Positions 456 to 1,433 of a stretch of 5,085 nt of DNA are shown in pieces (within the stretch, counting starts at the first letter, position 1; each line of letters begins with the position of its first letter). The notes under the pieces were generated by a model. That model saw nothing but the letters and a program-made list of their open reading frames with translations, ran no database searches and had not been told where the DNA came from. Made by a program: the position numbers and the translations under genes. Origin of the DNA: Candidatus Jordarchaeales archaeon (lineage in GTDB: Archaea; Asgardarchaeota; Jordiarchaeia; Jordiarchaeales; Freyrarchaeaceae); contig JAWAHN010000008.1 of the NCBI GenBank assembly GCA_038889235.1, positions 1-5,085 on the forward strand, written 5' to 3'.

Positions 456-1433
456 TCACTTCGAGACCCATCCGCATCCAACTTCTCGGGCGATCGATAA
501 AGCTCTTTCAGCTATCTCGTTATATTCCCTCGCCAAGTCTTCTCTTCCTACTTTTTTTGAAGCCGTTATCAAGGCTCTGGCCCTTACGTAAGCGGCTCTT
601 AAACCATCGCAGTCAAGTTGTCCGTGGACGTTGCATATCGGGAAGCCAAGGTCATCTGGCCTCAAAAAGCACTTGTCACCGTACTTCTCCTTCACTTCCC
701 AACGTTGTGACGGGAGCTTCGGCTTCACCAAGTCCCAGTCCCAACGATCATGCTTTACTGGAAGCCCTTGCCAAGTCCTCTCTTCAAGCTCAAAGACGTT
801 CAGCGCTTGGAAGATCTTCTTCCTTAGCTCTCTCAATTCCTCTATCGCTGATTCCCTCAGCGTTCCCTCTTCTAACATCTTCTTGTGCTCGTTAACTATC
901 CTTATCGCTTCTCTGAAGATCTCAGCGTACTCCTCCCCGTGCTCCAGCCTCATCCCTTCCTCCGCATAACCTTGGATCAATAGTAAGTGCTTCACCATGC
1001 AGTCCCCGCACCTCATTTCTTCTCTACTGTAATGTTCTTCTAGCAACGCTAGTTGCTTCGCTATCTCAAGCAAATTGAACCTAGCGTCGTGGTGGTCGAA
1101 CGTTAACTTCATCTTTGGAACTTCTTCTTCCTCCTCTTCTTCAAGGCTCGCCTCGCAAATCACCTTCCTGTCCTTAGCGCACTTCAGAACGTTCTTATGT
1201 ACCATACAGACGATCGTCTTCTCCGACTCCTTCAGGTCTTGCTCTGAAAAATGTGGGGAGGATGGGTGGTTGTGCAGGACAACGTCGCAACGGGAAGGTA
1301 TCCTAACGCTCCTCCTCCCTCCTCTAACGAAAAGAACTTCGTGGTTCCTCAAGCACAGGGCGAACTCGCTATCATGTCTTTCTCCCAGCCTTTGAAGCAC
1401 CTTCGCTTCCTTCTTTATCTCTTCGCATATCAC
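456..1433 (-). CDS. 325-aa three-module protein: N-terminal JAB/MPN-like metallo-domain, E7 linker, helical CxxC domain, C-terminal Cys-containing domain
   Basis: ORF track; GTG start; E23 plus H54-N-H56-P-x5-S63-x2-D66 resembles the JAMM motif (HxH-x6-S-x2-D variant); RCGDCMVKH; KCFLRPDDLGFPIC...GLRAAYVRAR. Confidence 0.9.
   Translation of the reverse strand: MICEEIKKEAKVLQRLGERHDSEFALCLRNHEVLFVRGGRRSVRIPSRCDVVLHNHPSSPHFSEQDLKESEKTIVCMVHKNVLKCAKDRKVICEASLEEEEEEEVPKMKLTFDHHDARFNLLEIAKQLALLEEHYSREEMRCGDCMVKHLLLIQGYAEEGMRLEHGEEYAEIFREAIRIVNEHKKMLEEGTLRESAIEELRELRKKIFQALNVFELEERTWQGLPVKHDRWDWDLVKPKLPSQRWEVKEKYGDKCFLRPDDLGFPICNVHGQLDCDGLRAAYVRARALITASKKVGREDLAREYNEIAERALSIAREVGCGWVSK

Follow-up and report, generated by a model that had tools for sequence, protein, structure and literature searches.

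A minimal JAB/MPN domain on a small archaeal virus contig, best read as a phage/toxin-type hydrolase rather than a ubiquitin-cleaving enzyme

The window, the whole 5,085-nt stretch analysed here, is an entire 5-kb contig of a 2.1-Mb MAG (G000). Its minus strand carries a 325-aa, three-domain open reading frame (456-1433) that begins with a JAB/MPN domain. The start codon is GTG with GGGAG 10 nt upstream, and the homolog in L002 has ATG at the equivalent codon. The features in and around this gene are as follows.

1..72 (-): start of a membrane-like protein; in L017 the next gene encodes the single jelly-roll capsid protein
92..211 (-): small basic Cys-containing protein, candidate core protein; 87% to L002 by tblastn, and found in most related viruses
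459..764 (-): C-terminal Cys-rich domain, common to uncharacterised Nucleocytoviricota proteins
804..1106 (-): four-helix middle domain with an invariant C-x-D-C-x-x-K-H; generic helical-bundle matches only
1122..1142 (-): run of seven Glu between domains (residues 98-104); variable; not conserved as a cleavage site
1143..1433 (-): minimal JAB/MPN domain, residues 1-97 (AF2, VIA, Atlas)
1236..1274 (-): H54-x-H56-x6-S63-x2-D66, predicted Zn ligands H54/H56/D66 and oxyanion Ser S63; invariant
1305..1322 (-): G38-x4-V43, probable Ins-1 strand remnant; invariant
1365..1367 (-): E23, predicted general base activating the Zn-bound water; invariant in 15/15
1372..1608 (-): 78-aa ORF that lies upstream and runs 62 nt into the JAB gene; L002 and L017 show the same overlap
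1612..2118 (-): coiled-coil protein marking the common gene block, homologous to MTIV c153 and MTIV3 ORF16 (pairwise blastp E 3e-7 and 2e-6)

The window matches the 10-kb contig L017 at 85% identity across 2.6 kb. In L017 the gene order runs on through a basic protein, then a membrane-like protein and a capsid protein of 138 aa. The window contig does not reach the capsid gene, and the capsid assignment is made via L017 and L002, whose homologous products match SPV1 VP4 (6oj0), MTIV c137 and the structural proteins of MTIV, MTIV3 and SPV3. Sequence comparison thus places the contig in a group of small archaeal hot-spring viruses with an MTIV/SPV1-type single jelly-roll capsid, in agreement with the viral origin proposed in an earlier note on this DNA. 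Relatives are 9.5-14 kb in size, and one of them (L011) is a 9.6-kb circle by terminal overlaps. Portogloboviridae as defined by ICTV have a circular genome of ~20 kb, a Saccharolobus host and a VP1 nucleocapsid.

The JAB gene is located in the virion-gene block, just before the core, membrane and capsid genes, and is found in every locus of the group long enough to show it. No JAB gene was detected in MTIV, MTIV3 or SPV3. The gene is therefore a core gene of the sub-lineage that is dispensable for the capsid type. The syntenic slot in MTIV, MTIV3 and SPV3 holds a small Erv/E10-like CxxC protein, and the MTIV copy is annotated as a virion structural protein. These proteins (L068:3357-3674, L069:5441-5764 and L070:3371-3649, respectively) are helical with a WGP..PCxxC motif, like Erv1/poxvirus E10 thiol oxidases (Pox_E10 E 0.16). 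The middle domain of the window protein also has an invariant CxxC after a helix, and by analogy a disulfide-forming role is possible. Homology between the two is unsupported (hhalign 1%).

In L007, L010, L011-type loci and L027 the JAB gene has a DNA methyltransferase gene as its direct neighbour, and several 10-13 kb loci of the group have no methyltransferase gene. An obligatory pairing resembling restriction-modification was ruled out, as the methyltransferases come in two types and occur in only some of the loci. The viral loci yielded no recognisable Ubl, E1 or E2 gene, and no small dedicated immunity-like partner gene was seen beside the JAB gene.

The remainder of the window encodes an RHH protein (2340-2528), an RHH-like protein with a C2H2 finger (3232-3612), a small C2H2 protein (3999-4157) and an Ig-like protein (4353-4679), a repertoire typical of crenarchaeal viruses. 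Two near-identical 17-nt repeats (2815 and 2871) flank a short tandem CTAACGATAG between divergent genes, making 2815-2887 a candidate operator for the RHH protein. The AT-rich intergenic region at 3060-3230 includes a perfect 22-nt palindrome (3202-3223) near a GC-skew switch between divergent gene blocks and is a candidate promoter or origin region. Elsewhere in the group, differing tyrosine-recombinase-like genes are found (L002:9705-10847, L003:8907-9437, L005:5647-6867), with none recognised in the 9.6-kb circle, and no Rep or packaging ATPase was recognised in the group. L003:11321-11857 carries a Csx3-like (PF09620) gene for a possible ring nuclease against type III CRISPR. GGCC, CCGG, GTAC and GCGC are strongly under-represented in L018, L021, L005 and L023, though not in the window or L017, which suggests restriction avoidance.

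The catalytic motif reads HNHPSSPHFSEQD in the window protein, corresponding to HxH-x6-S-x2-D, with codons at 1272-1274 (H54), 1266-1268 (H56), 1245-1247 (S63) and 1236-1238 (D66) of the minus strand. All five residues that the earlier note had assigned to a domain of about 97 aa are present in the frame at the positions it gave. A motif of such a pattern turns up in 0.3% of shuffles of the 325-aa protein, and its conservation is therefore the real test. Homologs comprised 9 found by sequence, a further 3 JAB-bearing proteins found with phmmer using the domain alone, and loci from metagenomes and genomes; none was confirmed in a scan of IMG/VR. In all 15 distinct homologous domains, among which identity reaches as low as 27%, E23, G38, V43, C49, H54, H56, S63, D66, C76 and C85 are invariant, bearing out the predicted conservation of the catalytic set. 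By established JAMM chemistry, H54, H56 and D66 would hold the zinc, E23 would activate the water and S63 would stabilise the intermediate. Every JAB homolog has the x6 spacing from the second His to the Ser, and the HxH itself varies, being HNH (within HNHPS) in the window protein and HTH or HSH without the PS in most homologs. No conserved basic residue occurs among the 15 domains, and isoelectric points across the family range from 4.8 to 9.4. Between the window and L017, dN is 0.053 and dS 0.53 (dN/dS ~0.1), and the JAB domain is under purifying selection.

Residues 1-97 were modelled with AlphaFold2 from an 11-row alignment (pLDDT 94, pTM 0.86). In the model a long helix and two strands lead into a loop (38-50) and the HxH strand; a short helix bearing S63 and D66 (64-69) and three strands (74-79, 82-87 and 90-96) follow, in place of the beta-hairpin that had been expected after the motif. 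The best solved match in VIA is PfJAMM1 (Z 8.5, rmsd 2.9, 96 aligned residues over chain residues 12-139), with AfJAMM (7.3), Cap3 (7.2), Rpn11 (6.7) and RadC (6.5) below it, and deaminases reach Z 5-6.5. Ranks 1-7 are JAB/MPN chains throughout both in VIA (Z 6.5-8.5) and in Foldseek, where TM to the PfJAMM1 crystal structure is 0.64-0.66 with weak E-values. Single Z values are middling, yet the predicted JAB/MPN assignment, also made in the earlier note, is safe because the top rows share one superfamily and the motif fits. At the level of the model, the positions of the secondary-structure elements and the 96-residue superposition on PfJAMM1 are compatible with a putative Zn site on which E23, H54, H56 and D66 would converge.

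Among predicted structures in the Atlas, whole-domain TM is 0.82-0.83 to DUF4329/Tox-JAB-2, 0.82 to a Mu_F-fused domain, 0.79 to unnamed phage clusters and to HflX N-terminal domains, and 0.74-0.75 to ThiF-fused domains; these values come from a different method to the Foldseek TM, whose target is a crystal structure. The top BFVD match is an Acidianus rod-shaped virus 2 protein (E 1.9e-5, TM 0.71), and below it are many JABs fused to minor capsid proteins. Pfam, PHROGs, NCBIfam and PADLOC returned no significant family for the JAB domain, and a PDB sequence-profile search with it gave no match. Prok-JAB (PF14464) does not match the window and matches 2 of 11 family members below the Pfam cut-off (best E 0.014), and neither RadC (PF04002) nor DUF4329 (PF14220) matches any of the 11. 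Phage_Mu_F is likewise absent from the window protein, and its likeness to MuF-fused JABs is at the level of the domain only.

Several measurements separate the family from cellular JAMM proteins. The distance from Glu to His is 30-35 aa in the family; viral and phage references have 38-44, and the two cellular JAMMs of the MAG, with HxH-to-Ser spacings of x7 and x8, have 46 and 57. About 30 residues of PfJAMM1 have no counterpart in the viral JAB, and these probably include helix H2. Residues 38-50 of the model, where we presume H2 would lie, form no helix, and the pairing of Ins-1 with H2 that shapes the Ubl-tail groove in JAMM1/Rpn11 was not found in the model; a strand resembling Ins-1 may be left. 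Canonical RadC has x7 spacing and retains the helix, and x6 is a mark of MuF/DarB-type phage JABs. A tblastn search of 50,697 phage records gave two weak JAB-bearing matches among those inspected, a MuF C-terminal JAB and the JAB of a DarB polyvalent protein, both with x6 as in the window family, which accords with the association of x6 with phage JABs suggested previously. With the family profile, hhalign gives 75% and 85% for these phage references, 19% for the JAMM1-like and 0.1% for the Rpn11-like protein of the MAG, a ranking that is partly circular in that both phage references were chosen as sequence matches. In CsRpn11, Ins-1 together with helix H2 forms one wall of the groove that holds the ubiquitin tail, and H3 forms the opposite wall (PMC6043591). 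The RadC and Tox-JAB clades have been proposed to be without a groove for a Ubl tail and probably to process nucleic acids or nucleotides (PMC3482391, PMC5512222); Tox-JAB-2 is also reported in NCLDVs and phages (PMC3482391), and its substrate was still called unknown in a 2024 preprint. The window JAB is best read as a tiny Zn-dependent hydrolase with an intact active site that belongs to the phage/toxin conflict type rather than the ubiquitin-cleaving type.

Each of the known systems shares part of these characters. Tox-JAB-2 (PF14220) has the same compact fold over 97 residues and the E, HxH, S, D signature, and its H[ST]H fits most homologs, whereas the window protein has HNH, belongs to an archaeal virus family with an invariant Cys set, and was seen with neither an Rhs/secretion domain nor an Imm-NTF2-2 partner. 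The MuF JAB of Dorea phage DO134P1 (WAX12352.1) and the DarB-like Atu_ph08 gp21 share x6 and HNHPS..(F/L)S..D with it. The Dorea phage protein, whose gene is located among head genes, also has a stretch near-identical to G38-x4-V43 (hhalign). However, the phage JABs are C-terminal with Glu-His distances of 39-44, and the window JAB is N-terminal and carried by a CxxC helical bundle and an NCLDV-like domain. JAMM1 desampylases (PfJAMM1, 5LD9/5LDA; AfJAMM, 1R5X) and CsRpn11 share the fold (Z 8.5 and 7.3, rmsd ~3) and the full catalytic set, but have x7 or x8 and the post-Ins-1 helix, are ~30 residues longer, and are only 13-25% identical. RadC (PDB 2QLC) resembles the window protein in fold, in the HNHPS motif start and in its association with mobile elements, but most homologs in the family lack that motif start. 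The Acidianus rod-shaped virus 2 protein (ALG96906.1, A0A0N9PCV1; L030:25324-26166) is also an unannotated archaeal-virus protein with an intact N-terminal JAB motif, but this is a rudivirus protein with x7 spacing, an unrelated C-terminal part and a weak sequence link (hhalign 27%). In contrast to Cap3 of CBASS and the Bil/Bub JABs, the window JAB has no PADLOC match and no CD-NTase or Ubl-E1-E2 operon, and its neighbours are virion and regulatory genes.

The JAB domain is autonomous. Three arrangements of the JAB, the helical CxxC bundle and the NCLDV-like C-terminal domain occur, with all three fused, with JAB and helical bundle fused, or with JAB as its own gene of 95-98 aa. The separate gene (L006, L007, L010) keeps the full catalytic set. 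L007, where a methyltransferase gene lies between JAB and helical domain, is an unambiguous split, and the split in L006 may be a frameshift or assembly error. The run of seven Glu, taken earlier as a linker, is present in the window protein, but it is E5, E3, E2 or absent in homologs, and poly-Glu runs also occur in several other ORFs of the window. The helical domain is a separate gene, too, in the 485-kb record of an uncultured phage (L031:2968-3372), where it stands directly after a portal-like gene in an ORF without JAB. For the C-terminal domain, Atlas features give 0.93 with TM 0.75-0.80, and BFVD gives Yasminevirus and Fadolivirus proteins at E<1e-3.

The MAG that includes the contig encodes ubiquitin, E1, E2, an Rpn11-like JAB and four ThiS/SAMP-type Ubls, and these systems would offer a viral isopeptidase a target. 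The ubiquitin-E2-E1 cluster with an adjoining RING-like ORF (G000 C2:384265-385735; L045) and the separate Rpn11-like JAB (C1:760202-760849) make up a eukaryote-like system. However, the MAG is a putative host, and binning is no evidence of host. The 108 spacers of the MAG have no real match to the virus, and the only matches in 400 genomes from the MAG's phylum and 401 from that of L026's MAG were low-complexity or fortuitous, those checked lying outside arrays. A search for the JAB profile in 60 relatives of the MAG was negative, and homologous contigs are binned with Desulfurococcaceae (including L017), Nitrososphaerota, Nanoarchaeales, Methanomethylicia, Aenigmatarchaeota and Parcubacteria.

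The best explanation is a probably virion-associated hydrolase that uses JAMM chemistry on something other than ubiquitin. The leading candidate for its substrate is a nucleic acid or nucleotide, a class to which we give a probability of about 0.4. The closest Atlas shapes, the minor-capsid-fused JABs in BFVD, the higher hhalign ranks of the phage JABs, the short Glu-His distance, the lack of a helix in residues 38-50 and the proposals made for the RadC and Tox-JAB clades all point to this, as do the virion structural protein in the syntenic slot of MTIV and the adjoining methyltransferase genes. The nuclease-like role suggested previously fits the relatives best, though its basis is published prediction, and a demonstrated nuclease activity of a RadC or Tox-JAB domain was not found in the papers retrieved, which leaves this leading reading weak. 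A single Zn working with Glu and Ser belongs to amide-hydrolase chemistry, and the want of a conserved basic residue, the range of isoelectric points, the loci without methyltransferases and the lack of an immunity-like partner, such as MuF-JAB cassettes have, also weigh against a nucleic acid substrate. The same chemistry, with an invariant oxyanion Ser, would suit a Zn metallopeptidase that cleaves a non-Ubl protein in trans, either to mature a viral core or membrane protein or to inactivate a host defence protein. The position of the gene before the core, membrane and capsid genes in every long-enough locus is consistent with such a peptidase, and the invariant G-x4-V strand could pair with an extended peptide. 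This is nonetheless rather unlikely, as MTIV, MTIV3 and SPV3 build related capsids without a detectable JAB gene, and the search for a conserved cleavage motif was negative. Gly-Gly close to the ends of structural and membrane proteins was considered as a cleavage site and rejected, since it probably overlaps the ribosome-binding site of the next gene.

A viral isopeptidase that strips SAMP, Urm1, ubiquitin or Cap2/Bil-type conjugates, countering host tagging or defence as in the earlier note, would explain why PfJAMM1, AfJAMM and Cap3 are the best solved matches, although the solved library is dominated by DUBs and any JAB would be expected to match a DUB best. In Thermoplasmatota clusters, comparably shaped compact JABs occur fused to ThiF/E1 (TM 0.74-0.75), and the ubiquitin and SAMP-type genes of the MAG would fit. 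We consider this unlikely given the Glu-His distance, the ~30 missing residues, which probably include the H2 that with Ins-1 bounds the ubiquitin groove (PMC6043591), the non-Ubl function proposed for the related clades, the lack of recognised Ubl genes or a PADLOC match, and a host link with no spacer match behind it and with L017 binned with Desulfurococcaceae. Self-processing in cis, with downstream domains freed at the acidic linker, was also proposed; the N-terminal position of the JAB, the flexible linker and natural gene splits at the same boundary would be in keeping with it, but separate JAB genes keep all catalytic residues, a methyltransferase gene intervenes in L007, and the linker is conserved neither in length nor in sequence, leaving it extremely improbable. 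Another metal-dependent hydrolase, removing DNA/protein adducts or using deaminase-like chemistry, or a mainly structural Zn domain, is very doubtful: deaminases share the fold and HflX N-terminal domains are neighbours in shape, but the ligand set is of JAMM type (HxH..D) and not deaminase type, and invariant E23 and S63 argue for catalysis. The interpretation in the earlier note is, overall, partly supported.

For the virion-associated hydrolase, the position of the gene makes it probable that the enzyme is packaged or works together with the viral core. The JAB may ride on the helical and giant-virus-like domains fused to it, much as JAB cargo rides on MuF in phages, although packaging by fusion is impossible for the stand-alone JAB genes and virion location is inferred from gene position only. 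Lacking the post-Ins-1 helix, the active site would be open and would not grip a Ubl tail as JAMM1 and Rpn11 do, and the JAB could have a nucleic acid or nucleotide as its substrate while the virus enters the cell or handles its genome. It is improbable that this ~95-aa virion-borne JAB, fused to two domains that also occur in giant viruses or jumbo phages, is a counter-defence enzyme, be it a deubiquitinase or desampylase against an archaeal ubiquitin system, or a tractable demonstration of nucleic-acid cleavage by such pared-down JABs.

Viral JABs, and JABs serving as capsid cargo, are already known. An unnamed, unusually short, Cys-rich JAB family in archaeal viruses with single jelly-roll capsids, in a new carrier architecture, is new, and a search of the accessible papers found nothing pairing Portogloboviridae or archaeal viruses with a JAB domain. 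The JAB marks an undescribed sub-lineage of MTIV/portoglobo-like viruses, in which it and two large-virus-like domains fill the slot of the Erv/E10-like CxxC virion protein of cultured relatives. If it were a true Ubl isopeptidase, this would be an archaeal virus attacking Ubl tagging. The hydrolysis targets of the non-ubiquitin JAB clades (RadC, Tox-JAB and MuF cargo) have been predicted since 2012, with no experimental test found in the accessible papers. The family offers a thermostable, naturally stand-alone JAB of 95-98 aa that is nearly a bare catalytic core, and therefore a convenient test enzyme.
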